A DNA stretch of 64,000 nucleotides from an uncultured Bdellovibrio sp. (GCA_963932905.1 CAWVRN010000003.1:128001-192000); one strand, 5' to 3'; shown: positions 49,129 to 64,000, counted from the first letter of the stretch. Program-made: numbers and translations. Notes: generated from the letters alone by a model not told the origin.

Positions 49129-49389
49129 TATTATAGCGAGAAAAACCCTATTTTAGAGCGATGATACCGCAGTCCATGGACCAGATCCTAAACACAGAAT
49201 GATTTCTTCGGCCTAAATATTTTTAGACGATTTTCCCGTAGAAGGAAAAATGGCGCGATATGCGCTAAAATCGACGGCGCCGGGAAACCATGTCGCCCTG
49301 CCAAGACCAAACCAGGAAACTATTTCCGAATGTTTGTAAAATCCAAATATTCCGTTGCTTCAGGATACTTTCGCCCTTAGAAGTGTCCT

Positions 49390-49740
49390 ATGCATAATTT
49401 AACTAAAGAACAGATCATGGTCATTTCAGATTCTATGCGCCAAGAAAACGGCGCTACTCACGAAGAAGTTTCAAATTTATTGAAACGTGCAATGACCGTA
49501 GGGGATTTAAAAAAACTACTAACTACCGTTGACGATTCTCTTCCCGTTGAACTTGAAGTCATTATGGAAATTTCTGAAGATGGACAGTGCACGGCTCAGC
49601 CTGGTCTAGCGATTCATCATTATCAAGTTCAAAGTGGGGATGATGGGTACCCTCGATTAACTTTAGTCGGCGCTCAACCGCAAAACGTCGAGTTGTACGC
49701 AGAGGCCTTTGAGTTAGATCTTCCAGTGCAACCCAACTAA
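49390..49740 (+). CDS. Small acidic hypothetical protein
   Basis: ORF with MTV.DLK..L...DD.LPV motif. Confidence 0.6.
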   Translation: MHNLTKEQIMVISDSMRQENGATHEEVSNLLKRAMTVGDLKKLLTTVDDSLPVELEVIMEISEDGQCTAQPGLAIHHYQVQSGDDGYPRLTLVGAQPQNVELYAEAFELDLPVQPN

Positions 49741-49750
49741 ATTAGAGTCA

Positions 49751-49927
49751 ATGAAAACCCAAGAACCAAATCCAATACTTCAACTCTTAAAGCAAAAAGA
49801 AGCGACTCAAAAGGCCGCTAAGAATTTTGGTTTCTTCGGTAAATCAAAACCCAGCGCATTTTCACGGCCCAGCAATTCCAGCCGACCAACACATCGTGGT
49901 GGCCGCAATGGTCACGGCAAACCGTAG
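49751..49927 (+). CDS. Small basic protein (58 aa, MKTQEPNPILQLLK...HRGGRNGHGKP)
   Basis: Read by eye, below ORF-track cutoff; 10 nt after the upstream stop; Lys/Arg/Gly-rich. Confidence 0.45.
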   Translation: MKTQEPNPILQLLKQKEATQKAAKNFGFFGKSKPSAFSRPSNSSRPTHRGGRNGHGKP

Positions 49928-49964
49928 ATCGCTACCATTGGTGGTTCTGTTTTAATTGAGCGTT

Positions 49965-50092
49965 CTACCAGAGACTGGACGATATTGCCAGAAATGGGCC
50001 GATCCCGAGTCTATGCATTCAATCCAAAATCACCTCTCTTAAAACCAGTGAAAGAACCAAAGTGGAAAACCGCCACTGAAGAACAAATAGGT
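49965..50092 (+). pseudogene. Multiply deleted remnant of a paralogue of the 53746-54685 wHTH/NTase module
   Basis: Three joined pieces similar to 53746-53772, 53984-54051 and 54147-54190. Confidence 0.85.
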
Positions 50093-50097
50093 TGGAC

Positions 50098-51327
50098 TCA
50101 ATTTGAGTAAATTAAGTCTGAGTACACATAACCGTCCAATTCAGCAGTCAATATTGGAAAATCCTTGTTCGTAATGGTAACAACGATATGACGATTTACA
50201 TTTGTTTTTGGGTCATGAAAATAGGTTTCAAATTGCACCGATGTTTCAAGCATACCAAAATCCTTCGACGAAAGAACCCCATGCCTATCCATAAAAACTC
50301 TTTGCTCCGCGGGAAGAACCAATTTTAAAATAGGTTCCCACTTAATGTCTCGTTGGCCATTTTTACGTTCTACCAACTGAACTTTTTGCCTATCACCCGA
50401 CTTAGAAACAAAATCCAAATCTAAAACGTACTGACCATCTTGCATTGAATATTCGTAGTAGGCACAAAGAGGATTAATAGTTAGATGAAAGAACTTCTTT
50501 AATCGTATTTCAGCAGGACTCCATGAACCAGGCTTAACTGCATAATTTGGACTATTCGGGTTTACAATACTGAACCAGCACGTTCCACTTCGCTTGGAAC
50601 TCGTATCCTGATTATAAGAAGCTCTCACCTTAAAAAGATCGGCCAAATAGAAATCGCTGCGGACCTTATCAAGAGTATAGTGCTGCCAAAAATTATTAGT
50701 CGTAACAAACCTTACATAAGAATCACGCATTAATGGAATTCGATCAGAATGAGAAAGTCCAAACACATGACCAAGTTCGTGCACAACCGTCAATTGCGTC
50801 GTCCAGCCATCAAATTCGCTCCATGTCTTTGGCCACATTAACTCTGGATCCAAGGCCAAAGGACCGCGTTCAGGAGCTAAATAAATAAAACCTTTACCAC
50901 GAAGGTGTACTCGGTCGTAATCCGTCCTGACGGCCATCGCAATTTTTTTATCAATTCCGGAAAGGTTTTGAAGCTGCTCCAAACTTAAAACACCAAATTG
51001 AAAACGAAGATCAGTTGATGGAGCGCAGTCTTCGTAAGTAAACACCTGTTTACCAACTGGGAAGTCGGCATCTGCATAGTAGGACTCTGCGAACTGCCTA
51101 GTCCAAAATTTAAGAGCTCTTTCAACAATCATTTCTAGTTGTGGTTTTTTAAGGCTAAAGTTAGTTTCGTCAACTTGAATGCAGTAACGGACATTCTTGT
51201 TATTGTTTAAAAACCAAGGGTTATCGGTATCACTCTGGATTTGACCACCGCCTACGACCCAACCGCCCGCGTAGGAATAGCATGATCCAAACAACATACA
51301 AAGGATAAATAAATTTGTAAGTTTCAT
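50098..51327 (-). CDS. Secreted metzincin-type zinc metalloprotease
   Basis: HELGHVFGLSH plus Met-turn (PLMR); signal peptide followed by GGWVVGGG. Confidence 0.85.
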   Translation of the reverse strand: MKLTNLFILCMLFGSCYSYAGGWVVGGGQIQSDTDNPWFLNNNKNVRYCIQVDETNFSLKKPQLEMIVERALKFWTRQFAESYYADADFPVGKQVFTYEDCAPSTDLRFQFGVLSLEQLQNLSGIDKKIAMAVRTDYDRVHLRGKGFIYLAPERGPLALDPELMWPKTWSEFDGWTTQLTVVHELGHVFGLSHSDRIPLMRDSYVRFVTTNNFWQHYTLDKVRSDFYLADLFKVRASYNQDTSSKRSGTCWFSIVNPNSPNYAVKPGSWSPAEIRLKKFFHLTINPLCAYYEYSMQDGQYVLDLDFVSKSGDRQKVQLVERKNGQRDIKWEPILKLVLPAEQRVFMDRHGVLSSKDFGMLETSVQFETYFHDPKTNVNRHIVVTITNKDFPILTAELDGYVYSDLIYSN

Positions 51328-51475
51328 TTCTCGAACTCCTCTCTATTTTTCTACCTAAATTAGAACAGCATGGTGTTTCTACTGTTATATGGAGACTTGA
51401 TTAAGTAAATTATTTAGTTAATAATTTTAATTAAATTGGTTAACTTTTTATTAACATCATATCACCCAGGATACT

Positions 51476-52288
51476 ATGAGCGTGTTTGAAATTTCAAGCT
51501 ATAAAGACATCATTAAATATAAAGTCGGATTACTAAAAAAAGTAAACTTTAAATACACTTTTGATTCACTCGCCAAGGCCATTGATGTCCATAAACCTTA
51601 TTTATCGCGTGTCTTGAATCAAAAAGGGGACCTCAGCAGCGATCAAATTTATAAGTGTTCACGCTACCTAAAATTTAGCGATCTAGAGAAACAGTATTTC
51701 GCCTTAGTATACGAAGAAAACATCTCTACTTTGCCCGACAGAAAGTCCATGCTTACAAATGAAATGGATAAGATCCGCAGGAAAGCACTTAAAAGCGATG
51801 TTCTTTATCCTGAAACACCTCAAGATATCGAACGACCAGAAAATTATTTTTTAGATCCTTATCATGCCTTGGTACATATGCATTTACTTATCCCAAAGTA
51901 CAAGAACAATACCGACCTAATTGCTGCAAAACTAAATTTATCAAAGCCTAAAGTGAACGAATACGTAGAAGCTCTACATGACATGCAAATCATTAATAAA
52001 ACTGGCAGCGAAATCAAAATCATGAAGGAGTTTGTTCGTCTGCCCGATAGCTCTCACTTAATGACCTCGTTCAGAAATCTATCAAAATTGAAAGCCCTTG
52101 AAAAAATCACTCAACTCCCGAACGAGGACTATCTCTCTATGCACGTTTTCTTTGTGGCCGATAACTCCGGAAAACAGAAAATCCAGAAATTATTTTTAGA
52201 TTTCCTTAACGAAGCTAAAAAAATAGCAGACAAATCAAAGTGTGAAGACGTTTATCAATTGAATTTTGACTTGTTGAAATGGAGCTAA
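51476..52288 (+). CDS. TIGR02147/DUF4423-family protein (N-terminal XRE-like HTH)
   Basis: LA..I.V..PYLSRVL, L.F...E..YF..LV, C-terminal VYQLN.DL..W. Confidence 0.8.
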   Translation: MSVFEISSYKDIIKYKVGLLKKVNFKYTFDSLAKAIDVHKPYLSRVLNQKGDLSSDQIYKCSRYLKFSDLEKQYFALVYEENISTLPDRKSMLTNEMDKIRRKALKSDVLYPETPQDIERPENYFLDPYHALVHMHLLIPKYKNNTDLIAAKLNLSKPKVNEYVEALHDMQIINKTGSEIKIMKEFVRLPDSSHLMTSFRNLSKLKALEKITQLPNEDYLSMHVFFVADNSGKQKIQKLFLDFLNEAKKIADKSKCEDVYQLNFDLLKWS

Positions 52289-52293
52289 GCAGC

Positions 52294-52324
52294 ACCTCTT
52301 CCACGTCAAGGAAGTGGGCTACCA
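52294..52324 (-). repeat. tRNA-Val(GAC) fragment (D-loop to variable loop), att-like site
   Basis: acctcttccacgtcaaggaagtgggctacca; homologous to the longer copies. Confidence 0.8.
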
Positions 52325-52407
52325 AATAGCGCCCTTTGCAATTAAAACCATTTTGAGCTTATAAAATCTAAAGTCCTCCGTTGTAGATTCTGTCTTTTTG
52401 TCATAAT

Positions 52408-52632
52408 ATGGCAGAAAGCGATACTAAGGTTTGTATGGAAGTATATATAAAAGAATCTCTAAATTCAGTTTTAGCAAATACGGATCACGACTTAATTGAC
52501 TTTAATCTTTCGCTTTCTTATGAAGAACGACTGTTAAATCATCAGCGCTCACTAGACACAATAAACGAATTACTAAAGGCACGAGTACAAATTTATGGAG
52601 AATCTGAATCTTCTACTCAAACGCCTTCTTGA
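52408..52632 (+). CDS. Small partner protein, putative antitoxin
   Basis: D..LI..NL.LS.EERL motif; overlaps the start of the NTase gene. Confidence 0.65.
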   Translation: MAESDTKVCMEVYIKESLNSVLANTDHDLIDFNLSLSYEERLLNHQRSLDTINELLKARVQIYGESESSTQTPS

Positions 52633-53518
52633 TGCCAAAATCGACTTTGTACTGATTGGCGGATATGCCGCCGTTGTACATGGAGCATCCCAGGTCACTC
52701 ACGATCTGGATATTTGCGCCGTTATTACAGAAGAACAACTTGTAAAACTAAAAGCGGCACTCAAGGGACTAGATCCTAAACACAGAATGAATCCTTCGGC
52801 TCAATTATCTTTGGACGATTTCCCAGCCGAAGGAAAGACCATAGACAACTACTATCTAAGAACTACAGCAGGAGTTTTGGATATCTTAAAAGAAGTTTCA
52901 ATTGTCGGAGATTTTGAAAAGTTAAAATCTAATGCCAATACAGTGAAAATTTTTGGTCACGAATGCAAAGTGATTTCACTCGATGATTTAATTACAGTAA
53001 AGAAATCAATGACTCGTCCAAAAGACAAAAGTGTTTTGGATGAGCTTTTGACAGTTAAGCAAAAGCTTTCAATAGATAGCGAGAGTTTTCTGAAAACTAT
53101 AAAAGCAAATAGTATCAGCTTTTCAGCAGTTAAAGTTATTGATGAAAATCACTTTGAATCTCGCGTAATTTTCAAAGATTCAAAAAACGAGTCCCTTAAT
53201 TTTGAAGTTGCAATATCCAAAGAAGATTTACGGAATTTTGCAGAAAGACTAAAATCCTTCCCAAAAGACAGTCACGACTATTTAGAAGTCATACTGAAGT
53301 CACTTAAATCTGAAAAAATTGGTTTATCCGTAAAAGTAGTAGATTCAAGCGGAAGATGCGAATTCAAATTAGAGCTAAAAGAAGTTAAAAAAATTGAACT
53401 AGGAATGAAATTCTCAAACACTATTTTAGCAGAACCTTTAAAACTTAATAAGTTAGGCCAATCAATAGAAAGTTGGCTCAATCATCCTTCGGGGAACTTC
53501 TTATTTTCCCTAAAATAA
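52595..53518 (+). CDS. Nucleotidyltransferase (DUF6036/AbiEii-like) with extra ~150-aa C-terminal domain
   Basis: FVLIGG.A...HG....T.DLDI; L...K....RPKD ends the typical domain near residue 155. Confidence 0.8.
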   Translation: MENLNLLLKRLLDAKIDFVLIGGYAAVVHGASQVTHDLDICAVITEEQLVKLKAALKGLDPKHRMNPSAQLSLDDFPAEGKTIDNYYLRTTAGVLDILKEVSIVGDFEKLKSNANTVKIFGHECKVISLDDLITVKKSMTRPKDKSVLDELLTVKQKLSIDSESFLKTIKANSISFSAVKVIDENHFESRVIFKDSKNESLNFEVAISKEDLRNFAERLKSFPKDSHDYLEVILKSLKSEKIGLSVKVVDSSGRCEFKLELKEVKKIELGMKFSNTILAEPLKLNKLGQSIESWLNHPSGNFLFSLK

Positions 53519-53566
53519 AAGGCGCAGCTAAAAGCCAGCAAGAACAAAAACGACGAGACAAGCAAA

Positions 53567-53694
53567 CCAATTCTTCCTAAAATTTCAAAATGCGAGGCGC
53601 CCGAGGACTTCGCGCGGAGGCGTGGCCCGTCCACGCCGCACAAGCGAGGTCCGAAGAGGCAACGAAGTCAGTTTGGAATTTTAGGAAGAATTGG
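53567..53694 (+). ncRNA. Structured hairpin element, copy A (unknown family)
   Basis: 23-bp outer stem with one G.T pair; nested stems ggacttcgc/gcgaggtcc and ggcgtgg/ccacgcc; covaries with copy B. Confidence 0.65.
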
Positions 53695-53751
53695 TGCGAA
53701 TAACTGGACTCGAACCAGTACCCACTTCCATGTCAAGGAAGTGGGCTACCA
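53692..53751 (-). repeat. tRNA-Val(GAC) 3' fragment, 60 nt, D-loop to CCA, att-like
   Basis: Minus strand TGGTAG...CTTCC TTGACAT GGAAG...ACTGG TTCGAGT CCAGT TATTCGC A CCA; no D-stem partner upstream. Confidence 0.9.
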
Positions 53752-53803
53752 GAAACTGGACTATATTGACCAATATTTGGTTGATATCGACCAGTTTCTG
53801 GTA
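53747..53803. promoter_or_regulatory. Operator palindrome over the promoter of the wHTH gene
   Basis: 13-bp perfect IR taccagaaactgg/ccagtttctggta plus inner imperfect IR; TTGATA-18-TATGAT before ATG 53817. Confidence 0.65.
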
Positions 53804-53816
53804 ATATGATAAATCC

Positions 53817-54149
53817 ATGCTAGAAGGAATATTCGGAAACAAAACCGCGGAAAAAGTACTACTTCATATTTTTCACTATGGAGAATCTCATGCATCGGCT
53901 ATTGCTGGTGATTTTAAAATGGCCCACAACCCTATTATTCAACAACTTAATCGTTTTGAGTTAGCGGGAATCTTAATTTCAAAAGAAATGGGTCGATCTC
54001 GAGTTTATTCATTTAATCCCAAATCACCTCTCTTAAAACCAGTGAAAGAACTTATAGAAATTGCGTACGAATCCATATCAATCTCTGAACGCCAAAAAAT
54101 ATTTCAAGTCCGTCGCCGTCCGCGCCGCAAAGGCAAGCCGGTTCAATGA
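53817..54149 (+). CDS. Winged-helix protein, putative antitoxin/regulator
   Basis: FG.KTA.KVLL, QL..E..G.L.S...GR.RVY.FNP; ATGA overlap with next gene. Confidence 0.8.
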   Translation: MLEGIFGNKTAEKVLLHIFHYGESHASAIAGDFKMAHNPIIQQLNRFELAGILISKEMGRSRVYSFNPKSPLLKPVKELIEIAYESISISERQKIFQVRRRPRRKGKPVQ

Positions 54150-54685
54150 AGGAACCTAATTGGAAAACCGCCACTGAAGAAAAAGTATGGCAATACGTGG
54201 GCTGGCATTTAGCCAAAAACGGAATTGAGACAATACTTGTCGGCGGCGCTGTCGCTGCAATTTATTCCGAAGGAATTTACAAATCAGGAGATTTAGATTT
54301 TGTTCTAAAAACATATATCGAAAACAAACTCACTGAAGCAATGGAGTCGATAGGTTTTCAAAGGCCTACTGGTCGACACTACGTTCACCCAGAATGCAGT
54401 ATTTTTATAGAGTTCATGCATGGACCGGTGGGTATAGGTGATGACGTAAAAATTAAGCCTGATGCAAAAACGATCGAAGGACAAAAACTATATATTTATT
54501 CTCCTACAGATTGCATACGCGATCGCCTAGCCTCTTATATTCATTTCAAAGCACGTGAATGTTTAGACCAGGCCGCACTCGTTGCTAAAAAATTTCCTTT
54601 TAATCAAAAGAAAGTAAAAGACTGGTGCGCTTCCGAAGGAGCTCCGCACGCTTTCGATGACTTAATGAAAAAAATTAAAAATTAA
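54146..54685 (+). CDS. Nucleotidyltransferase-fold protein, putative toxin
   Basis: LVGGA.A.IY..G.Y.SGDLDF; SPTD...DRL. Confidence 0.75.
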   Translation: MKEPNWKTATEEKVWQYVGWHLAKNGIETILVGGAVAAIYSEGIYKSGDLDFVLKTYIENKLTEAMESIGFQRPTGRHYVHPECSIFIEFMHGPVGIGDDVKIKPDAKTIEGQKLYIYSPTDCIRDRLASYIHFKARECLDQAALVAKKFPFNQKKVKDWCASEGAPHAFDDLMKKIKN

Positions 54686-54752
54686 GTCCCGCACAATCTA
54701 CAACTATTGGTAAATCAGGTAAGGGATCAAGACCTAACTTCTACAACTAAAC

Positions 54753-55358
54753 TCAGTCGATATGCTGACAACCTGCGCTTGTTATTCCAGAGCCAAGCAA
54801 AAGATTGGGTTTTAAAACGCCAGTTTTTAAAGCGTTCTTAATATCCTCACGAAACTGAGCCCAAAACTTGTCATTAATTGTCCATGGAAAATCATGTCTG
54901 ACTACAAAGTCGTGCGCCCCAAACAAAGCCATTAATACATTTCTGGCCTCAGTCGTTAGTTGTCCTCTTTCATCATAGGGGATTAACTTCCCGTCGGTTA
55001 CCGCAAATTTGATTGCGGCACCTCCTGAATAATCTTTTGTTCTCTTTAGAAGAAAACTATCGAAATTCAGCAGCTGAAATACCTTGCCTCGCTCAGGATC
55101 CTGCATTTCTTTGTCTAAACGCGTATCCATCTGATAGAGTTCTCCGAATTCATCCTTTTGCAAGCCCGCCGAGAAAATGTAATCCGCAATTGAAAACCCA
55201 TTCTGATTGGGGTTTTCAAGCGGTATTTCAATAATTTTTTTTACGTCTAGTTTTCTATCAGCAAAATAAATTCCTACTTCGCAATTCATTGTTCCTGAAT
55301 AAGCAGAACATGCAAAAAAGGAAGTAAGTAGGATTAAAATCTTATTATGCGCTTTCAT
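54753..55358 (-). CDS. Secreted hypothetical protein
   Basis: AGGAG RBS, signal peptide MKAHNK...AYS. Confidence 0.7.
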   Translation of the reverse strand: MKAHNKILILLTSFFACSAYSGTMNCEVGIYFADRKLDVKKIIEIPLENPNQNGFSIADYIFSAGLQKDEFGELYQMDTRLDKEMQDPERGKVFQLLNFDSFLLKRTKDYSGGAAIKFAVTDGKLIPYDERGQLTTEARNVLMALFGAHDFVVRHDFPWTINDKFWAQFREDIKNALKTGVLKPNLLLGSGITSAGCQHID

Positions 55359-55366
55359 GGAATCTC

Positions 55367-55768
55367 CTAGTTGCATTCAATTCTGCTTTTACTGCCGTCA
55401 TTTTCTAGCACATCCATGTAAAATAATTTTCCCCAACTATGAATTGATAATTTTCTATACTTAATGGCAGCACCCGTCTTTGGGTTGTACTCATAAATTT
55501 CAATGCCTTCCAAATCAGCGCCCTCCGAATGAGATTTAAATTCCAAATTTACAGACTCTTTTAGAGTCGCTCCCTCTAACTCGTAGCGATTTTCAAAGTG
55601 AATAATACCTCTGCCAAATCCAACCGCATATTTATACTGCAGCAAAGAGTAAGGTCCGCACTGGGCTACCTTTTTGGATTCAAATCCAGCGTCCGAAGTA
55701 GCCATGGCCTCTGAAAGAAGTGAAATAAGTAATGTTAAAACAAGTGTATTTAAAATTTTCATAGTCAT
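55367..55768 (-). CDS. Secreted hypothetical protein
   Basis: GAGG RBS, signal peptide, Cys near both ends. Confidence 0.7.
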   Translation of the reverse strand: MTMKILNTLVLTLLISLLSEAMATSDAGFESKKVAQCGPYSLLQYKYAVGFGRGIIHFENRYELEGATLKESVNLEFKSHSEGADLEGIEIYEYNPKTGAAIKYRKLSIHSWGKLFYMDVLENDGSKSRIECN

Positions 55769-55774
55769 ATCCTC

Positions 55775-56209
55775 CTATTTGATCGTCACGCAAAAATCTT
55801 TTTTTGTTCCATCGCCAACATAGGCACTTAACAACGCGTTGGCTCCTTCACTGCAATAGCTGGTGGTATAGGATAAATTCGATCCAGTGCTGTTGCGCCC
55901 AATTACGATTAGATTTTGATCATTATATTTTTGAGTAGTAGGGTTTAAATTTAAACTATAGAAGAAATATTTTTTTGGTTTTGTTACGTAAGCGAAAATT
56001 TTTCCATCTTCCAAAGTCGCCTCGCCAATATCTTCACCTTCGATTAACATTTCGCTAATACCTGTCTTATTTAACGAAACTTGAATTTTCTTTGTCAGAA
56101 CAGCATTAAGTTCACGATCATAGCCCGTGTTGATCTGGCCCGATTTCACGACGGGTGCGGCACTGGCCATAGCACTTATGACGGTTAATAAAACGGTAAA
56201 GCTTTTCAT
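55775..56209 (-). CDS. Secreted hypothetical protein
   Basis: AAGGAG RBS, signal peptide ending ASA. Confidence 0.75.
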   Translation of the reverse strand: MKSFTVLLTVISAMASAAPVVKSGQINTGYDRELNAVLTKKIQVSLNKTGISEMLIEGEDIGEATLEDGKIFAYVTKPKKYFFYSLNLNPTTQKYNDQNLIVIGRNSTGSNLSYTTSYCSEGANALLSAYVGDGTKKDFCVTIK

Positions 56210-56345
56210 AAAAACTCCTTTATTGGTTGATGACGCGAAGATAATTCATTGCGTTAATCGCTTCTAGATTAAATTGGTACAAAAGTTTACATTTTCAGTA
56301 CTTTTAGTTCATTATTTTCATTAAATAACCGATTATATTGATATA

Positions 56346-57149
56346 ATGAGTATTTTTAAATATCAGAATTTTCGCAAATACTTGAAGTCTGTCCAGGATG
56401 AACTACCTAAGAAGGGCCGCGGTACGATTACCCTATGGGCTTCTATTATCCAATCTACACCCACTCTAGTGAGCCAGATTTTAATAGGTAACAAGTCAAT
56501 GAGTTTAGAAATGGTCGATCGCCTATCGACTCATTTGGAGCTGTCTGAGAAAGAAAAAGACTACTTTATCTTGCTTGTAGAATTTGATCGCGCGGGTACA
56601 AAATCTTTAAAAGATTACTTCCTTAAGAAGATAGTGATTATGCAGGATGAATCACGCTATTTGAAAAATCAAATTAAAGGTATTACTGAACTACCGGCCG
56701 AGGTAAAAGCCATCTACTACTCACAGTGGGTGTATGCCGGTATTAGAAACCTCGTCGCCTGTGCTAAAATTGCGAATGCTGAAACGATCGCTGAGGAACT
56801 GAATCTTCCTAGGGAAACTATCTCTAATGTGATCGATTTTCTTGTGAAACATCAACTTATAGTTCCTGCAAAGAAAGGATGGGCTCCTGGTCCGCAAAGT
56901 ACGTTTGTTCCCGCCGACTCCCCGTTAGTTTACAAGCACCATCAGAATTGGAGGCTTAAAGGTATTCAACAAATGGATCTACAATCCAAAGAAGATTTGT
57001 TTTACACTTCACCAATGTCACTTTCGGCAGACTTAGCGAAAGAACTGCGCAGCCGTATCGTAAAGGTTATTCAAGACTTTCAAAAAGACATCGGCCCGTC
57101 AGAATCAGAAGTCGTTCGTTGCCTAAATATTGACTGGTTTGAATACTAG
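56346..57149 (+). CDS. TIGR02147/DUF4423-family protein
   Basis: IF.Y..FR.YL, E.DYF.LLV...RAG, YYS.W.Y..I, H.NWR, V..LNID.F; paralogue of 51476. Confidence 0.85.
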   Translation: MSIFKYQNFRKYLKSVQDELPKKGRGTITLWASIIQSTPTLVSQILIGNKSMSLEMVDRLSTHLELSEKEKDYFILLVEFDRAGTKSLKDYFLKKIVIMQDESRYLKNQIKGITELPAEVKAIYYSQWVYAGIRNLVACAKIANAETIAEELNLPRETISNVIDFLVKHQLIVPAKKGWAPGPQSTFVPADSPLVYKHHQNWRLKGIQQMDLQSKEDLFYTSPMSLSADLAKELRSRIVKVIQDFQKDIGPSESEVVRCLNIDWFEY

Positions 57150-57181
57150 GTTTTGGCCAACCATTTGCTATTTTATAGGGT

Positions 57182-58528
57182 ATGACGAAGACTACCCCCA
57201 ACCTATTGATTCCTATAGCATTTACGGTGTATTTCGTCGCATTTTTAGTCGCCTGTCAGCCTAAAAAAGATACTTCGCCTACAGCTTCACCCGCCCCTAC
57301 GAGCCCTCCGGGTCCGAGCGTTCCCGATTCCAAGGGTACGTCCGATCAAGGTGGAGGGGGAAATTTGATTAACGGCAAGCCTCTAGAGTTCTACAAAAAA
57401 GATATTACTCAGTTACCTGAGTATATAAAATTCGTAGATCCCATCGACAAAAAATTAAATGATATCCGTGAAGACAATCAAGCCGACAACGGAGTGACGT
57501 ACTTGGCAACCGCTGCCAAAAGAAAAACGTGGTACATAGTGCCGGTAAAACTTGAAGAGTTAGAAGCTGCGCGCATCGGCACCAATTTTAAATCGGATCA
57601 GGGCGCCTACCAAACAGAAAAAGAAATCTTTATTTCAGAACTTATATACAAAGATATGGACGAGGAACACAAAGCCCAATTACTTCTACATGAAACGGTA
57701 ATGGCTTTTTACTTGGTTAAATATGAAGACGGCCGTTTCTACTGTGAGGCATTCAAAAAAGCGAGCGTCCGTGAAAATTGTTTAAATAGTTTTACTGATA
57801 TGTCGGCTAAAACGGAATTTAAGCCTGCGCAAAGAAACGGAAAGTTTTTGGATCCGGAAGAATATGAAAGCATTCGCCATGTCACAGAATGGCTTTTTAA
57901 TGGATACAAAGCACTAACAAAATTAAAATTCGAAGAGAAAATGTTTGAAAAGAAATTTGATCCACGCGTATTCAACAATCGAAATATAGTTGATCGTCAA
58001 CAAAACCAGCCTACGGAAATGCAGACCAACGATATCTTAAAAATTCTCGAAACTCAGCAACTTACAAATCAATCCCTTACATACTGCGGATTTGATTTCA
58101 GCGCAAAAACTCCGACAGCTAGGCGTACATGCAAAATCGTCTACAACGTCAAAGATAAACTTTTAAATATGACAATTCAATCGGATGACGGAAAAACAGA
58201 ATCGATAGATTTTAATATCTACCCGACTATATTTGCTGCAAAAGTTGGTTTTAAAAATGGACTAACCTTATTCAACGTAAGATTCCAAGAAGCAGTACGT
58301 TCTGAGCACGGTAAATCATTCAGAACACTAATGTTTTGGTTACAGCATTCTACATCTACAGAATTCAATATTAAAGCCATCCGAATTCAAAAAAGCATGT
58401 GGATCAAACAAGATGAATCCGGAAATTCTCTTCGTTCCGAAGAAGTAAACCAAATTCCAGAAGAGGATATGTATAGACTCATTTACGGGGCTAAAGAAAC
58501 TGATATTTCTTTCGATGATTTAAACTAA
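57182..58528 (+). CDS. Lipoprotein with GT.D.GGGG motif and HExxM zincin-like motif
   Basis: Lipobox LVAC, Pro-rich linker, GTSDQGGGG, QLLLHETVM. Confidence 0.7.
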   Translation: MTKTTPNLLIPIAFTVYFVAFLVACQPKKDTSPTASPAPTSPPGPSVPDSKGTSDQGGGGNLINGKPLEFYKKDITQLPEYIKFVDPIDKKLNDIREDNQADNGVTYLATAAKRKTWYIVPVKLEELEAARIGTNFKSDQGAYQTEKEIFISELIYKDMDEEHKAQLLLHETVMAFYLVKYEDGRFYCEAFKKASVRENCLNSFTDMSAKTEFKPAQRNGKFLDPEEYESIRHVTEWLFNGYKALTKLKFEEKMFEKKFDPRVFNNRNIVDRQQNQPTEMQTNDILKILETQQLTNQSLTYCGFDFSAKTPTARRTCKIVYNVKDKLLNMTIQSDDGKTESIDFNIYPTIFAAKVGFKNGLTLFNVRFQEAVRSEHGKSFRTLMFWLQHSTSTEFNIKAIRIQKSMWIKQDESGNSLRSEEVNQIPEEDMYRLIYGAKETDISFDDLN

Positions 58529-58558
58529 AAAAAGAGAAAAGAACGGAAGAATCAGAAC

Positions 58559-58618
58559 TGTTGATCTGTAGTGAACTCGAACCACTGACCTCGTCGATGT
58601 CAAGGACGCGCGCTACCA
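58559..58618 (-). repeat. Divergent tRNA-Val(GAC) 3' fragment, 60 nt, att-like
   Basis: Minus strand TGGTAGCGCG CGTCC TTGACAT CGACG AGGTC AGTGG TTCGAGT TCACT...; same endpoints as the other copies. Confidence 0.8.
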
Positions 58619-58879
58619 AGATATAACTCATCCCAATTTGGACAGCAAAGCCTACAAACTTAACAGAGGCCGTTCCGAAACCTAGGGTCATAGTGACCGT
58701 AAGCTAGGATGAAAATTCGACAAGAATTGGAGACAATCGTCTCTTTAGCCAAATTCAGTACAGTTCAAATCATCTAAGAATTACAGCATCATAGGGGTTT
58801 TTCTCGCATTTTTGTACTGGGTTTAGTCAAAAAAAAGGGCGAATTAGTGTTGGCATAGCTTGCAGAATTTTTTATACAG

Positions 58880-59830
58880 ATGAAAGATTTAGGATTTAAA
58901 TTTTTAATATTCGTTTTAGTAGGACTAGCTCCTCACTTTGTTAATGCTCAAGCTTGCTTAAAGTTTTACAGCAGGTCGAATATTAAATCTGTACCTATGA
59001 AAATTGTGAATGACTTGTTTGCTGGATCCATTGACGGCTATTATGGTGAAACAAAAGCAGTTCTTGTGAATGCCTCCTTGGTATCAAGAAGGAATATTTC
59101 TGAGATCAATTCCTTATTTAATCAAACCCCTAATGGATACTATGGCCCAACGAAAGCATCGCTTGTGTACACATCGATTGTCTCTGGAAAACCAATTTCC
59201 GAACTGAACGCCATGTTTAATAAAACCACCGATGGCTATTATGGTGAAACAAAAGCAGCACTTGTGCATGCTGCTGCCGTCTCTGGAAAGCCAATTTCAG
59301 AAATCATCGATTTATTTAATCAAACCCCTAATGGATACTATGGCCCAACGAAAGCATCGCTTGTGTACACATCGATTGTCTCTGGAAAACCAATTTCCGA
59401 ACTGAACGCCATGTTTAATAAAACCACCGATGGCTATTATGGTGAAACAAAAGCAGCACTTGTGCATGCTGCTGCCGTCTCTGGAAAGCCAATTTCAGAA
59501 ATCATCGATTTATTTAATCAAACCCCTAATGGTTATTACGGTGAAACAAAGGCGTTACTCGTATACTCGGTGGTGGCCTCGGGAAAACCGATTTCGGAAA
59601 TCATCGATTTGTTTAATCAAACCCCTAACGGTTATTACGGTGAAACAAAGGCGTTACTCGTCTATGCTTCGATCGCTTCAGGAAAACCGGTTTCCCAGAT
59701 CAATGCTTTATTTAATCAAACCCCTAATGGTTATTACGGGCCGACAAAAGCATTGCTTGTCCTAAGCTCATTGGGTCTAAAAATTCCATTTGAACATCTT
59801 TTAATTGTCCTAAATCTTAAAAAGAAATAA
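58880..59830 (+). CDS. Secreted protein with eight 33-aa GYYG repeats
   Basis: Signal peptide; FNQTPNGYYG[EP]TKA.LV...SGKPISEI..L units; exact 198-bp DNA period 59114-59532. Confidence 0.85.
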   Translation: MKDLGFKFLIFVLVGLAPHFVNAQACLKFYSRSNIKSVPMKIVNDLFAGSIDGYYGETKAVLVNASLVSRRNISEINSLFNQTPNGYYGPTKASLVYTSIVSGKPISELNAMFNKTTDGYYGETKAALVHAAAVSGKPISEIIDLFNQTPNGYYGPTKASLVYTSIVSGKPISELNAMFNKTTDGYYGETKAALVHAAAVSGKPISEIIDLFNQTPNGYYGETKALLVYSVVASGKPISEIIDLFNQTPNGYYGETKALLVYASIASGKPVSQINALFNQTPNGYYGPTKALLVLSSLGLKIPFEHLLIVLNLKKK

Positions 59831-60139
59831 GCCAGATGGGTTTTGATGTTTTCCCTTCCCAATGAAATTTCGGACTTGTGAACGCTGGATCAAATGCACA
59901 AGAACTAGTTAACAAAATGCTCAAAGAACATTCTGTCGCCCTTCTAGGGTGATCTCATTACGGACTACCAAACCACATCAGAATTTCTGTAGGTTTACCA
60001 GAAACAAATCGGACAGTTTTATCACAACTCAAAATTCAATTCCAAAAGATAAACACTCAATCCTGTTAGAAATTTTACGCAAAACAACAAAGAGCGCAGC
60101 CAAAGGCCAGCCAGAAAAAAGAACGACGATCCAAGCACA

Positions 60140-60269
60140 CTTAAACTTCCTAATAGATCAAAATGCACGGCGGACCGATTTCAAAAGCGCGGAGGCGTGC
60201 TCAATGCACGTCGCAGCGATTTTGGAATCGAGGCCAACGCAGTCAGTTTGATCTATTAGGAAGTTTAAG
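60140..60269 (+). ncRNA. Structured hairpin element, copy B
   Basis: Perfect 23-bp outer stem cttaaacttcctaatagatcaaa; nested cgatttcaaaa/ttttggaatcg and ggcgtgc/gcacgtc. Confidence 0.65.
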
Positions 60270-60272
60270 AAT

Positions 60273-60332
60273 AGGTGCGAATAACTGGACTTGAACCAGT
60301 GACCTCTTCCATGTCAAGGAAGCGCGCTACCA
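60273..60332 (-). repeat. tRNA-Val(GAC) 3' fragment, 60 nt, most canonical copy (ends CCT)
   Basis: TGGTAGCGCG CTTCC TTGACAT GGAAG AGGTC ACTGG TTCAAGT CCAGT TATTCGC A CCT; 5' acceptor strand absent. Confidence 0.9.
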
Positions 60333-60668
60333 AAGACTGAAGAATCACCAGCCCGGTTGCATAAATTTAGAAATTCCACATAATTAATAGATTTGGGATG
60401 CAGGATCGGGATTCTAATTGGTTTTGGTCAGGACATTTCTATTCGATTGCGAGTTAAATTAGAATGTGTAGCCATTTTAGGACTTCAATTATGTTTAATT
60501 CTGAGACCTTCTAAATAACAAAATTTATTGTTCGATAGTCGGGTAAACATTTAGCCGATTAACTAATTGCCATAAACCTTTGAGTTATTTAACCGGATCT
60601 GAAACCATTTCGCTAAGTGAAGCTATTTTCGTCATTGACAGAAAAAAATATCAATTGGGAGAAAATCT

Positions 60669-62045
60669 ATGTCTTCAAAAAAAATTGCCGTGGAATATAT
60701 CAAACTTATTGAAGACTACTTTAATCCCCTATTTAAGCTTGGCCCCAATGAAATTGATCATATTAGTTTGGGAGAAGAGTTTTCAAACTACAGATCACTT
60801 TCAAACCTAATATCAAGCTCGCTCGATGACCTAGGGAAAGATATTAAATCTTTTTGGGAAGCGAATAATAACGAGCTACAGCAAGAATTAAAGAATTCTG
60901 ATGGCATGAAATGCATCTACTCAGGCGACATTTCTCCACACAATGCCCTAAAATTAACAAAGAAAACCGCAATGTACATGGACAGTGTACTAATCCCAGA
61001 TCCACTCTATAAAATTTCAGTGCAACTTTCTGAACTAAAAAGAGATAAACCAGAATACCTTAGCAGAATTATTAGACATGCAGCAAATATGTATAAATTA
61101 AGAGACCTAATTACAGCCGACACAGCGTACCCGATAGTATGCGTGGCTCCGCTCGGCCTTGATCATATTTCACCTGAGAAAAAAAAAGAGATAGTACAAA
61201 GCGGAATCGAAAATCTCACCAGATATGGATCTAAAATTTTCGATAAAGATTTTTCAACTTTTGATAATTTATACGACTACCTTTCGAAAATAAATACAAT
61301 TGAAGGTCTCACTACAGAAATCTCGAAATGGGATCAACTTCCCCCTGATATAAGAGATACAGCATCATTGAACGAGCTAGTGAGCGGTTTTTCTAAATTG
61401 GGAAAGACCATGCAAAGACAAAACAAAGAAACATACGGTCAATCTTTTATTATTTATCTGAATTCCCAGCTTATCCGAGTTGAAGAACATAAGTATCTTT
61501 GCAACGAGCTCGGAGCTTCGCCTATCTACGATTTTCATCGACCTTGGTTTTTTATGAATAGAGATCTTAATGCTCCCAACATTGATTCCGCAATAGCTCA
61601 GGGACTGCAGGACACTAAATTAGAATGGCTTGGAAATATTCCGCCGGAGGCAATTAAAGTGCTTAGGGAGGAAAATGAATTGGAAGATTTTAGACAGCTT
61701 TTACGGAAAGGCCTTCACGATGTAAAGGTAAAAAACGATCCAAACTTAAATAGGACCGTCGATACACTTCAGCAAAACTTAAAATCTTGCATTGAATTTC
61801 ATAATTCAAAAATTGATGATATTCAAAAGAAGGTAAATCGAATTGCAAATTACGATATCCCTATAACGACAATTGGTGCACTAGTCGGATGGATACCTGT
61901 TGTTGGAAATTTCTTGAGCATGCCTTTTACTATTAAGGATTGGTTTTCTCAGTCTAATGAAGTCGAGGCTGCTACAAAAGAGTTAGCTAAGAGTGAGGCT
62001 GGTTTTATAAACTTCTTAATACAGGCAAAAGATGACAGAAAGTAA
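60669..62045 (+). CDS. Hypothetical cytoplasmic protein with C-terminal coiled coil and hydrophobic segment
   Basis: 458-aa ORF, GGAG RBS; MY.D.V.IPDP motif; TIGALVGWIPVVG segment. Confidence 0.75.
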   Translation: MSSKKIAVEYIKLIEDYFNPLFKLGPNEIDHISLGEEFSNYRSLSNLISSSLDDLGKDIKSFWEANNNELQQELKNSDGMKCIYSGDISPHNALKLTKKTAMYMDSVLIPDPLYKISVQLSELKRDKPEYLSRIIRHAANMYKLRDLITADTAYPIVCVAPLGLDHISPEKKKEIVQSGIENLTRYGSKIFDKDFSTFDNLYDYLSKINTIEGLTTEISKWDQLPPDIRDTASLNELVSGFSKLGKTMQRQNKETYGQSFIIYLNSQLIRVEEHKYLCNELGASPIYDFHRPWFFMNRDLNAPNIDSAIAQGLQDTKLEWLGNIPPEAIKVLREENELEDFRQLLRKGLHDVKVKNDPNLNRTVDTLQQNLKSCIEFHNSKIDDIQKKVNRIANYDIPITTIGALVGWIPVVGNFLSMPFTIKDWFSQSNEVEAATKELAKSEAGFINFLIQAKDDRK

Positions 62046-62766
62046 ATTTATCTCTTATGGTATTTTATTTTTCCTTGGATATGTTCAAAGAAAACTCAGA
62101 TCAGACCCTCAATATTTGCCGAATTCTTTAATTAGAGCAATCAACGCAGCAGCAGCGGCGGCGGAAACAGTAACGGTGGATAGAAATGCAATGGGAACGG
62201 CATTTGACGTCAAAGAGGATGACATTCAACAAGGTTATGCAGTCATTGTTGCACGTCGGTCATATGGAATCGAGATTTTAAAAATTCAAGATTTAACTAA
62301 CAACGTCGAAATTCCTCCAGAGCTTTGTTTAAATATTTTTAATATTCAAATCCTACTCGACAAATATTCTGGTGAAGAAATAAGTGTTTTCGACGCCGTC
62401 GACGTTATGAACAGTTGCTTCGAGTCTCCGCAGTTTATTGCCCTAGGAGATAATTGGCCCGCCGCTAGGGACAAATTTATAGAAGCGGTAAATAGAAAAA
62501 CATTTAATTTTGGTAGCCAGGAAGAAAAGGTATTCGTGCAAACTATGCTGTCGAAAATAACCCGAAACACAAATTGGGAAGATTACCCTTCACGATTAAG
62601 ATCCTTGATTTCCGCATATTTCGTAGACAAAGATAACGGCAAACCAAATACCTTAGTGATATCTACTACGGGCAAACATTTAGTAAAAAAATCCCAAATA
62701 TTTAAGTTTTCAAATAATATCGTCATGGATTTTGGAATGAAATACATGGCACCAAAATTTAGGTAA
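62032..62766 (+). CDS. Hypothetical protein coupled to upstream gene
   Basis: 244-aa ORF overlapping the upstream stop by 14 nt. Confidence 0.7.
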   Translation: MTESKFISYGILFFLGYVQRKLRSDPQYLPNSLIRAINAAAAAAETVTVDRNAMGTAFDVKEDDIQQGYAVIVARRSYGIEILKIQDLTNNVEIPPELCLNIFNIQILLDKYSGEEISVFDAVDVMNSCFESPQFIALGDNWPAARDKFIEAVNRKTFNFGSQEEKVFVQTMLSKITRNTNWEDYPSRLRSLISAYFVDKDNGKPNTLVISTTGKHLVKKSQIFKFSNNIVMDFGMKYMAPKFR

Positions 62767-62771
62767 TTATT

Positions 62772-63995
62772 TGTAGAAGTTAGGACTTGATCTGACACAT
62801 CTTGGATAGAAAAGATGTGGAAAACTCAGTTACCCTTTTGTTTGGTACTAACAAACAAAAGGGGCCAATCCCCAAAGGATAACTGAGCATGCAAACAATA
62901 CAACAAAAAATCATATCAAACAAACTCGGACTTTTAAGTTTAGCTGAAGAATTACAAAATGTTTCTAAAGCCTGTAAAATAATGGGTTATTCTCGTGACA
63001 CATTTTACCGATATAAAGAATTAAAAGACGACGGAGGAATCGATGCGCTTCACGAAAGAACTCGAAAGAAACCCAATTTTAAAAACAGAGTAGATGGAAC
63101 TATTGAATCTAGCGTCTTGAAAATGGCTATCGACTTTCCGGTTTTTGGCCAAAAACGCGCTGCCAATGAACTTCGAAAGAACGGAATTTTTCTATCGCCA
63201 GCTGGGGTTCGAAGTATTTGGCGTCGTCAAGATCTAGAGACTTTTAAAAAGCGCCTCGCGGCACTAGAAGCTAAAAGCGCTGCTGAGGGGTTGGTTTACA
63301 CCGAAGCCCAAATCGCTGCGCTAGAACGTAAGAAAGACGACGACGTTGCCTTCGGTGAAATTGAAACGGCACATCCTGGATATTTAGGATCGCAAGACAC
63401 GTTTTACGTTGGCACGATTAAAGGCGTTGGTCGAATTTACCAGCAAACTTTTGTTGATACATATTCCAAAGTTGCCTTCGCTAAATTATATAATCAGAAA
63501 ACACCGATCACCGCAGCTGACATATTAAACGACAAGGTTCTTACATTTTTTGAAAGTTACTCCGTGCCTTTGCTAAGAATATTAACAGATCGCGGAACTG
63601 AATTTTGCGGCAAGGTCGATCAGCACGACTACCAGCTCTATATTGGCGTTAACGACATCGAACACACCAAAACTAAAGTCGCACATCCACAAACCAACGG
63701 AATATGCGAAAGATTTCATAAAACAATCCTGCAAGAGTTTTATCAAGTCACGTTTAGAAAGAAAATTTATAAAGCGATGGATGATCTGCAAACTGATTTA
63801 GATCAATGGATGATAGAATATAATGAAAGGAGAACCCACCAAGGTAAAATGTGCAATGGACGAACCCCGATGGAAACTTTTATTGACGGAATTAAAATCT
63901 GGAGACAAAAGGACATCGGTTTAAACTTGAACTGACAGTACAAAATAATTTGCTGAACAAAAAGGCGACTGTCAGATCAAATCTAAACTTCTACA
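62772..63995 (+). mobile_element. IS481-family insertion sequence, 1224 bp
   Basis: 26-bp terminal IRs, 23/26 match, TGT...ACA ends (62772-62797, 63970-63995); single transposase ORF. Confidence 0.93.
62889..63935 (+). CDS. IS481-family DDE transposase
   Basis: NVSKACK.MG.SRDTFYRY HTH; QDTFYVG, LTDRGTE, PQTNGICERF, YN..R.HQG. Confidence 0.95.
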   Translation: MQTIQQKIISNKLGLLSLAEELQNVSKACKIMGYSRDTFYRYKELKDDGGIDALHERTRKKPNFKNRVDGTIESSVLKMAIDFPVFGQKRAANELRKNGIFLSPAGVRSIWRRQDLETFKKRLAALEAKSAAEGLVYTEAQIAALERKKDDDVAFGEIETAHPGYLGSQDTFYVGTIKGVGRIYQQTFVDTYSKVAFAKLYNQKTPITAADILNDKVLTFFESYSVPLLRILTDRGTEFCGKVDQHDYQLYIGVNDIEHTKTKVAHPQTNGICERFHKTILQEFYQVTFRKKIYKAMDDLQTDLDQWMIEYNERRTHQGKMCNGRTPMETFIDGIKIWRQKDIGLNLN

Positions 63996-64000
63996 CCTAA

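Follow-up and report, generated by a model that had tools for sequence, protein, structure and literature searches.

The right-hand part of a 64,000-nt window of the genome of an uncultured Bdellovibrio sp. (GCA_963932905.1, CAWVRN010000003.1:128001-192000, plus strand) carries a row of co-oriented tRNA-Val(GAC) gene fragments with short, integrase-less gene units between them. This row is probably the product of tandem site-specific accretion, i.e., a stack of integrative elements at one tRNA-Val(GAC) gene, most of which are now inert remnants; it represents a known route of genome growth and not a new integron-like machine. The genome (G000) is a 4.55-Mb draft assembly of 58 contigs, in which the window corresponds to G000:C3:128001-192000, so that a coordinate on contig C3 equals the window coordinate plus 128000. 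Tandem accretion and cis-mobilizable elements (CIMEs) are treated in the relevant part of a review (PMC5704250), and subsites in the anticodon loop, the T-loop and the gene junction, as well as tandem arrays, are described for tRNA islands in the corresponding part of PMC4383910.

Displaced tRNA-Val pieces behind one intact gene

Repeat finding and BLAST located four co-oriented 3' pieces of tRNA-Val(GAC) on the minus strand of the window, which confirms their listing in the first-pass annotation of this DNA. In the linear numbering of the 76-nt tRNA-Val gene used here, the D-loop comprises positions 14-21, the anticodon stem positions 27-31 and 39-43, and the anticodon loop positions 32-38. 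The rightmost piece (60273-60332, 59-60 nt) belongs to a type designated A and shows one mismatch to the intact tRNA over 61 nt; the next one (58559-58618, 60 nt) is a tRNA-Val(GAC) piece of type B with four mismatches to the intact B copy over 61 nt; the third (53692-53751, 60 nt, positions 17-76) is of a variant type with seven mismatches to the intact tRNA over 61 nt; and the last (52294-52324) is truncated to 30 nt (positions 16-46), the sequence after about position 46 having been lost, and has a variant D-stem arm and three mismatches in a 27-nt core. The piece at 58559-58618 thus derives from a second type, B, and not from the type adjoining the integrase gene. No chance occurrence of the exact 60-mer with up to three mismatches is expected in the window. 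All four pieces start at position 16 or 17, in the D-loop, and the common D-loop end ascribed to them is thus real.

An intact type A gene is located at C3:248450-248525, about 56 kb past the end of the window and on the side where it had been predicted. When the whole 4.55-Mb genome was queried with the tRNA, seven matches were obtained, every one of them within C3:180295-248525 and on the minus strand, and none elsewhere; the 60-mer is not scattered over the genome, since all tRNA matches fall within 70 kb. The displaced minus-strand pieces behind the intact gene start at C3 193999, 188274, 186559, 181692 and 180295. The first of them (C3:193999-194058), to the right of the window, is identical to the intact type A tRNA in 60 of 60 positions, and the number of mismatches over 61 nt climbs with the distance from the tRNA from 0 to 1, 4 and 7, followed by truncation. 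The 27-nt cores behave likewise, being perfect at C3:193999 and 188274, with one mismatch at 186559 and three each at 181692 and 180295, where the piece is truncated. Decay that rises with distance fits old scars, not maintained cassette boundaries as the first annotation had it. An intact tRNA gene with co-oriented displaced 3' pieces on its 3' side is the signature by which Islander recognizes islands, and it is present here. On the 5' side, the intact gene is flanked by a lipB-like gene, which is the direct neighbor of tRNA-Val(GAC) in six of nine congeners and marks this site as the ancestral target. The regions downstream of the tRNA in the congeners G007 and G017 have nothing in common with that of G000.

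The window probably represents the old, distal part of a stack of about 68 kb, built by successive insertions of elements into the ancestral tRNA-Val(GAC) gene, with the newest and sole complete element adjoining the tRNA and older, integrase-less units further off. Each entry would displace the 3' part of the current tRNA copy and fuse the displaced part to the arm of the newcomer at the core, resulting in a piece that runs from position 16/17 to 76. The shared core would comprise positions 16/17-41/42, with exchange in the 7-nt anticodon loop, the stem arms presumably serving as the inner parts of the half-sites, and the D-loop start would be the outer edge of a left half-site of about 14-16 bp that is kept by every element. 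Many elements of the family may moreover supply a complete replacement for the tRNA gene, located some 140-155 nt beyond the core. The small units, 1.4-5.7 kb in size, would be integrase-less elements or remnants comparable to CIMEs, which by now are mostly inert scars; the cores of the two units nearest to the tRNA are perfect, and the resident integrase may still be able to mobilize these units.

The integrase and the 54-kb element at the intact tRNA gene

The view that the pieces are footprints of a tRNA-targeting tyrosine integrase, and the prediction that such an enzyme is encoded to the right of the window, are both borne out by a gene at C3:246767-248206, which is located directly 3' of, and convergent with, the intact type A tRNA gene and ends 244 nt away from it. 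Its frame comprises 479 codons; because homologues begin at frame residue 51, the protein has about 428 amino acids. The match to PF00589 (E 8e-4, 19.7 bits) remains below the cut-off of 27.1 bits. The catalytic pattern of tyrosine recombinases includes R, K, H, H and Y, and residues R264, K310, H376, H403 and Y412 of the integrase are invariant in 21 of 21 aligned homologues, while position 375, the usual place of the second arginine, is K or R. A profile search of PDB sequences retrieved Xer-type recombinases weakly (E 0.026). The AlphaFold model (pLDDT 84) matches XerA, XerH, Tn1549 Int, lambda Int and Cre, 25 PDB entries in all matching at E<=1e-3; among the fold matches, the integron integrase 2a3v comes only in 45th place. 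Judged by its motifs and its predicted fold, the enzyme is a very divergent tyrosine integrase, and a small N-terminal beta-sheet-plus-helix domain of the model may correspond to the arm-site-binding domains of lambda-type integrases, which it resembles. The gene is single-copy in the genome. Its nearest named records are metagenome-assembled genomes of Bdellovibrio and Bdellovibrionaceae; 36 homologues were found in a search of 5.8 billion clusters, the family occurs in 15 of 121 Bdellovibrionaceae genomes, and tblastn against 50,697 phage records gave no match. An Islander-style filter would probably miss the enzyme, which falls below the Pfam PF00589 cut-off.

The integrase belongs to a 54.4-kb, probably conjugative element (C3:194059-248449) closed by the 60/60 piece at C3:193999-194058. 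A tyrosine integrase next to the tRNA, as Islander expects within an island interval, is present in this 54-kb interval only and not in the small units. Upstream of the integrase gene, the element codes for a DNA methylase, an FtsK/SpoIIIE-type translocase, TrbI, a weakly matching TrbL, a VirB4/TraC-like ATPase of 800 amino acids, and a TrbC/VirB2-like pilin; the matches of the VirB4/TraC-like protein, TrbI and the FtsK/SpoIIIE translocase are clear, and that of TrbC/VirB2 is just below its cut-off. In the 54-kb element, a clear relaxase was not found, the only candidate being a weak MobC-like replication-relaxation match. Further cargo comprises a sigma-54 activator, a radical S-adenosylmethionine protein, a resistance-nodulation-division efflux system, copper chaperones, P-type ATPases, a multicopper oxidase and arsenic-resistance genes.

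The element appears to be composite. At C3:207484-207241, a foreign arm is followed by a short extra piece that consists of tRNA positions 16-42 only (C3:207458-207484), a 141-nt spacer, and a complete tRNA-Val(GAC) gene of type B (C3:207241-207316), the acceptor and T stem of which differ from those of type A. This junction may be the seam between two accreted elements, which would make the 54-kb element a combination of a 41-kb part with integrase, type IV secretion and efflux genes and a 13-kb part with copper and arsenic genes, which is integrase-less and has its own tRNA-Val B. The same internal structure is found in the congener contig G003:C74, with a 100% identical tRNA-Val B and with metal-resistance genes that are related but rearranged.

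The small units and their possible service in trans

Going away from the tRNA, the small units follow in the order E, D, C, B, A. Unit E (5.7 kb as a whole) extends with its left part (60669-64000, plus strand) into the window, where it encodes proteins of 458 and 244 amino acids (aa) and an IS481-family DDE transposase (62889-63935); it reaches the next piece (C3:193999-194058), 2 kb beyond the window end, and as a whole also encodes a 535-aa protein. Unit D (1.65 kb, 58880-60269) contains the gene of a 316-aa repeat protein with a weak RTC4-like match, whose open reading frame (ORF) includes six tandem 99-nt (33-codon) repeats at 59007-59801, and then a hairpin trailer (60140-60269). Unit C (4.8 kb, 53817-58528) comprises seven ORFs on both strands, coding for a 110-aa helix-turn-helix (HTH) protein, proteins of 179, 207, 133 and 144 aa, a DUF4423 protein (267 aa) and a 448-aa protein. 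Pfam matches assign to unit B (1.4 kb, 52408-53518, plus strand) a 307-aa DUF2204 nucleotidyltransferase besides a 74-aa ORF, and Pfam and NCBIfam assign to unit A (2.3 kb, 50098-52288) an M10-like peptidase (50098-51327, minus strand) and a DUF4423/TIGR02147 protein (51476-52288, plus strand). The sizes of units A to D (2.3, 1.4, 4.8 and 1.65 kb) and their one to seven ORFs each agree with the range of 1.4-4.8 kb and 1-7 genes given for them initially. The GC content of the units (36.8-39.6%) compares with 40.7% for the genome.

The tRNA-proximal side of each unit opens with a tRNA 3' part of its own type (A, A, B, variant), and in two cases the hairpin trailer follows next. This trailer is an imperfect hairpin of 130 nt (53566-53695, minus strand) whose first bases are those of the ACCA terminus of the displaced tRNA piece; the fold of 53510-53695 has a predicted energy of -66.4 kcal/mol (z -4.37). 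The second copy is the one in unit D, and there are only these two copies in the genome. The same trailer flanks the 3' side of the intact tRNA in the relatives G006 (94% identity over 235 nt) and G001 (80%). It may be a terminator, a small RNA or an arm of the element.

Per-ORF comparison with Pfam and NCBIfam and six-frame searches with PF00589, PF00239 and the integrase family profile A1 (E<=1) detected no tyrosine or serine recombinase in the units; likewise, six-frame searches of C3:177000-246000 with PF00589, PF00239 and A1 gave no tyrosine or serine recombinase and no integrase-family signal. The initial statement that the units lack a recombinase stands for these two classes, and fails for the IS481-family DDE transposase of the last unit. 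A Protein Atlas comparison of the 448-aa protein of unit C and the 458-aa protein of unit E provided no recombinase lead, and PADLOC, applied to 18 unit proteins, returned only weak matches, PDC-M05A for the HTH protein and CasR-like for DUF4423. Remnants of integrase or transfer genes are absent from about ten small units in three genomes. Lack of integration and transfer genes is also what characterizes CIMEs, the only mobility gene of the units being the IS481 transposase of unit E, and with no recombinase remnant in the units a CIME-like mobilization in trans is possible. Either remnants next to the site have been deleted systematically, or the units were integrase-less at entry.

The second of these possibilities leads to an alternative to which we give a minor share of the probability: a platform served in trans, in which integrase-less circles that never were autonomous, each with a tRNA-restoring site, are captured and released at the tRNA-Val core by the integrase of a resident or visiting conjugative element. 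This would mean, with the same low likelihood, that a population of tiny integrase-less elements with one to a few cargo genes each in Bdellovibrio and relatives is moved in trans, that tRNA-Val is an open gene-capture array, as the first-pass annotation proposed, and that the attachment region has two cores. In that case, which we again consider rather unlikely, the bare 16-42 core and, about 140 nt later, the complete replacement tRNA with its own core would permit two alternative integration products. Such a platform would account for several findings. Apart from the one integrase, C3:177000-246000 is devoid of any tyrosine, serine or family-profile signal, and the 17 unit ORFs of G001 and G006 that were scanned code for no integrase. 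The tRNA 3' part of its own type (A, B or variant) in each unit points to separate site-specific entries, and the two pieces nearest to the tRNA keep perfect 27-nt cores. The 13-kb metal-resistance part is integrase-less, and although its interior is rearranged, G000 and G003 agree in the two site types at its ends. Finally, G001 and G006 share a unit of two genes, for a DUF6036 nucleotidyltransferase and a 216-aa partner, that adjoins a type B piece with the same junction in both (82% identity over 1.36 kb) and continues differently on its other side in each genome.

These arguments are outweighed by the behavior of the sites and units. Besides the decay of the sites with distance from the tRNA, the 150-nt arms beside 17 pieces share no motif above shuffles, whereas the integrase model has a putative arm-site-binding N-terminal domain. 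Arrays also persist in relatives without an intact integrase: G006 has the tRNA and two pieces within 5 kb and another piece elsewhere, and no integrase match; in G001, three pieces share one contig at spacings of 1.4 and 1.9 kb, there are further pieces, and the integrase is reduced to a remnant of 45 residues. The right part of unit C recurs in G006:C43 (83% nucleotide identity) and G001:C114 (88%). In all three genomes, homology extends only to the stop codon that ends the 448-aa gene (58528) and does not reach the piece on the tRNA-3' side, from which it is separated by 30 nt, about 140 nt or 2 kb; the gap in G006 corresponds to two extra genes. The HTH and 179-aa gene pair from the end of unit C was found in 20 further metagenome loci, of which 12 include upstream sequence, none with a tRNA-Val piece there. 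Recent horizontal transfer of unit C was considered and is not indicated, because its proteins share 86-90% identity with those of G006, similar to the 68-94% of the adjacent core genes. Comparison with these relatives suggests that the array may be old and inherited. The gene pair of unit A also occurs in G001:C19, with 36% and 58% aa identity. The portion of the Bdellovibrio genome paper considered here (PMC3539863) mentions neither tRNA-Val nor an integrase.

Proposed attachment core and point of exchange

Of 18 pieces from G000, G001, G003, G006 and G009, 11 begin to match the tRNA at position 16, three at 17, two at 18, and one each at 13 and about 25; 16 of the 18 thus start at positions 16-18. 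A second edge is found on the integrase side. In six of the eight genomes with the integrase family (L012 and L016 being counted as one genome), a 5' tRNA piece that ends at position 40-41 is followed by a spacer of 137-155 nt and a complete tRNA (Val-GAC for G003, G008 and G009; Val-TAC for G108 and G092; Gly-GCC for G013). With G000 set aside, all three congeners that have a large integrase match possess the 5' piece, and none of the six others does. The loci with 5' piece (positions 1-40/41), spacer and complete tRNA are L012 (7472-7513), L016, L045, L046, L041, L042 and L043, which represent three tRNA species.

Since the 5' and 3' pieces overlap, the segment common to both comprises positions 16/17 to 41/42. 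Within it, the point of exchange is indicated by a complete hybrid tRNA in G003:C74, whose sequence is of type B through position 28 and of type A from 42 onward and whose two acceptor halves are unable to pair; the exchange that produced it fell between positions 28 and 42. To judge from these sequences, exchange most likely occurs in the anticodon loop, and the D-loop start would be the outer edge of the left core half-site. Accordingly, an edge of the shared core is a better reading of the D-loop end than a new point of exchange.

Cutting and exchange of strands in the D-loop itself, a site for which there is hardly any precedent and which would explain why identity begins at the same base beside unrelated arms, is improbable. 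It would agree with the start of 16 of 18 pieces at positions 16-18 next to arms without a shared motif, and a Klebsiella preprint, in the part concerned with integration sites, gives the D-loop as a 'novel sublocation' for some integrases (10.1101/2020.11.02.365908). It is, however, at odds with the type switch of the hybrid tRNA between positions 28 and 42, and with the second sharp edge at the anticodon stem, where the 5' pieces end at 38-42 in three tRNA species. Moreover, anticodon stem and loop offer the usual layout of an inverted repeat plus 7 nt, and on the left side of this loop, a half-site some 14 nt long has its end exactly in the D-loop. Generation of the pieces without any integrase, by segmental duplication or by homologous recombination among tRNA copies, would fit the decayed duplicate of a junction region at 49169-50089 and the T-arm hybrid nature of one G001 piece, but is very improbable in view of the same sharp start beside unrelated sequence in several genomes, the presence of an integrase of a tRNA-targeting family at the intact tRNA, and an orientation and tRNA side that fit the standard island signature as described in part of PMC4383910.

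The order of 5' piece, spacer and complete tRNA suggests that the element brings a whole replacement tRNA gene; many elements of this integrase family may thus carry the bare core and then a whole replacement tRNA gene, as far as their sequences suggest. To our knowledge, this attachment layout is unusual; the phrase 'complete tRNA gene' was not met for an attachment site in a limited literature search, and the layout may still have been described. A promoter scan of the spacers detected no site in the spacer region of G000; in L012, a single site precedes the host 5' piece, no more than in shuffles.

Tandem accretion remains the preferred explanation, and the following points weigh against it. 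None of the small units of G000 contains an integrase or conjugation pseudogene, although the decay of full elements should leave remnants, and no recombinase family was recognized in the 17 scanned unit ORFs of G001 and G006. The hairpin trailer occurs behind displaced pieces and intact tRNAs alike, so that it could belong either to the flank of the host or to the arm of the element. Synteny does not fix where the stack ends on its left chromosomal side, the 1510-aa gene left of the array having only distant homologues, in three of nine congeners. The assembly is a draft of 58 contigs, those used for the comparison range from 40 to 540 contigs, and the sole other record with the same order, L047, is 100% identical and may represent the same data. 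As to the core, G000 and G074 are without 5' piece and spacer, which calls for secondary deletion or a second integration mode. The proposed point of exchange derives from one hybrid tRNA and from block edges in sequence comparisons. The tRNA-Val(TAC) and tRNA-Gly members yielded no displaced 3' piece, and the D-loop edge is documented for tRNA-Val(GAC) only. A piece in L027 (10939-10999; G001:C19) is of type B up to the T-loop and of type A thereafter, with a T stem that cannot pair; exchange or conversion in its T-arm lies outside what the anticodon-loop model explains.

Comparison with known systems

The arrangement resembles the accretion of ICESt1/ICESt3-type elements and CIMEs in Streptococcus, as presented in the pertinent part of PMC5704250, in that an integrase-bearing, here probably conjugative element resides at the target with integrase-less units with attachment repeats behind it, and in that the composite is built by repeated entry at the same site. 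It differs in the target, as the elements of this predatory Bdellovibrio are associated with a tRNA gene at its anticodon-stem region, in the number of at least five successive small units, and in the absence of detectable integration or transfer remnants from these units, the mobilization of which is only putative. The 'A'-site tRNA islands of Islander (PMC4383910, in the part that defines them) share the intact tRNA with co-oriented 3' pieces downstream and the tyrosine integrase by the tRNA, and tandem arrays are recognized among them. In contrast to these, the identity block described here extends back to the D-loop (60 nt), and six of eight genomes have a 5' piece, spacer and replacement tRNA instead of a simple restored gene. 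The D-loop integrases of Klebsiella (10.1101/2020.11.02.365908, in its part on site preference) are similar insofar as the attachment repeat reaches the D-loop of the tRNA; the D-loop is proposed there as the site preference itself, whereas the evidence presented here favors exchange in the anticodon loop.

An integron-like organization, as suggested by the first-pass annotation, is not supported and appears unlikely; the absence of remnants from the small units speaks mildly for that annotation. A row of short gene units between recombination-site repeats, with one tyrosine recombinase for the row, is indeed reminiscent of integrons. However, integrons have an IntI-type integrase next to attI and a common promoter, and no enzyme of this type is encoded beside the array; the recombinase is that of a 54-kb, probably conjugative element, 54 kb away from the small units and not adjacent to their array, and in its fold it comes closest to Xer, Tn1549 Int and lambda Int. 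Arrays also persist in genomes that lack the enzyme, and the arms flanking the pieces are unrelated. Integron cassettes mostly consist of one promoterless, co-oriented ORF with attC, whereas the units described here contain up to seven genes on both strands, and their boundaries are direct copies of tRNA positions 16-76 that decay along the array, not attC-like folded palindromes.

The locus documents how the genome of a predatory bacterium has grown at a single tRNA gene. It also reveals a family of tyrosine integrases that is missed at standard Pfam thresholds, and suggests a layout of the attachment site in which the element supplies a whole replacement tRNA. Island finders that demand an integrase match, or that accept pseudo-tRNA calls such as the one described below, will mis-annotate the region.

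An operator-like palindrome and a pseudo-tRNA call

An inverted repeat identified by self-BLAST at 53747-53803 forms an operator-like palindrome in front of the gene of the 110-aa HTH protein. The palindrome also precedes the homologous HTH gene in the metagenome contig L048, with no tRNA piece beside it, and is likewise found at other loci free of tRNA pieces. It mimics the 5' half of a tRNA and gives rise to a pseudo-tRNA call: ARAGORN reports one 'tRNA-Val(GAC)' in the window, at 53692-53770 (79 nt), and Rfam makes the same call with 39.9 bits, above the gathering score. A whole tRNA at this position was rejected, as its 5' third is the palindrome and one of seven acceptor pairs and two of four D-stem pairs are mismatched. 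Annotation pipelines would probably report a false tRNA gene at 53692-53770. Besides the pseudo-tRNA, Rfam detected in 49000-64000 only one tRNA piece and a sub-threshold psRNA2 match (62689-62885).

The palindrome also accounts for a fifth, eroded tRNA site with the motif ctacca, which had been proposed at 49965. The motif falls within 49169-50089, where a nucleotidyltransferase remnant is followed by remnants of the HTH gene and its promoter; this segment copies the region 52757-54187 in a decayed but collinear form. In BLAST, the series 49169-49248, 49965-50008, 49990-50057 and 50046-50089 matches 52757-52836, 53746-53790, 53984-54051 and 54144-54187, respectively. Because ctacca constitutes one half of the palindrome, which L048 has with no tRNA piece next to it, the site at 49965 is not counted as tRNA-derived.

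Metagenome evidence and neighboring sequence

Logan contigs of the metagenome runs X5, X6 and X7, which stem from other studies, cover about 46.0-55.0 kb of the window; 55.0-59.8 and 60.4-61.6 kb are uncovered, and nothing is concluded for these segments. A joint of 58619 to 60307 in such contigs is unreliable, as it is single, has only 23 letters on its shorter side and lies inside a repeat, and a back-joint from 60303 to 53877 with 8 extra letters falls below the table thresholds. The IS481 copy of unit E appears to be present in some metagenome contigs and absent from others, one contig (depth 17) joining 62797 to 63969 across the copy with 24 other letters, and its terminal sequences (48-64 nt) recur in the G001 loci L027 and L033.

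In other organisms, homologues of the nucleotidyltransferase of unit B and of the HTH and 179-aa proteins of unit C occur together behind tRNA-Asp(GTC) (L050, 6710-10543; L052, 6084-10064), which suggests that the same cargo modules gather at different tRNA hot spots. Just left of the array, a 1510-aa ORF (44596-49128) has no Pfam or NCBIfam match; its distant homologues in the three congeners mentioned above share 26-40% identity, and this region may be accessory DNA itself.

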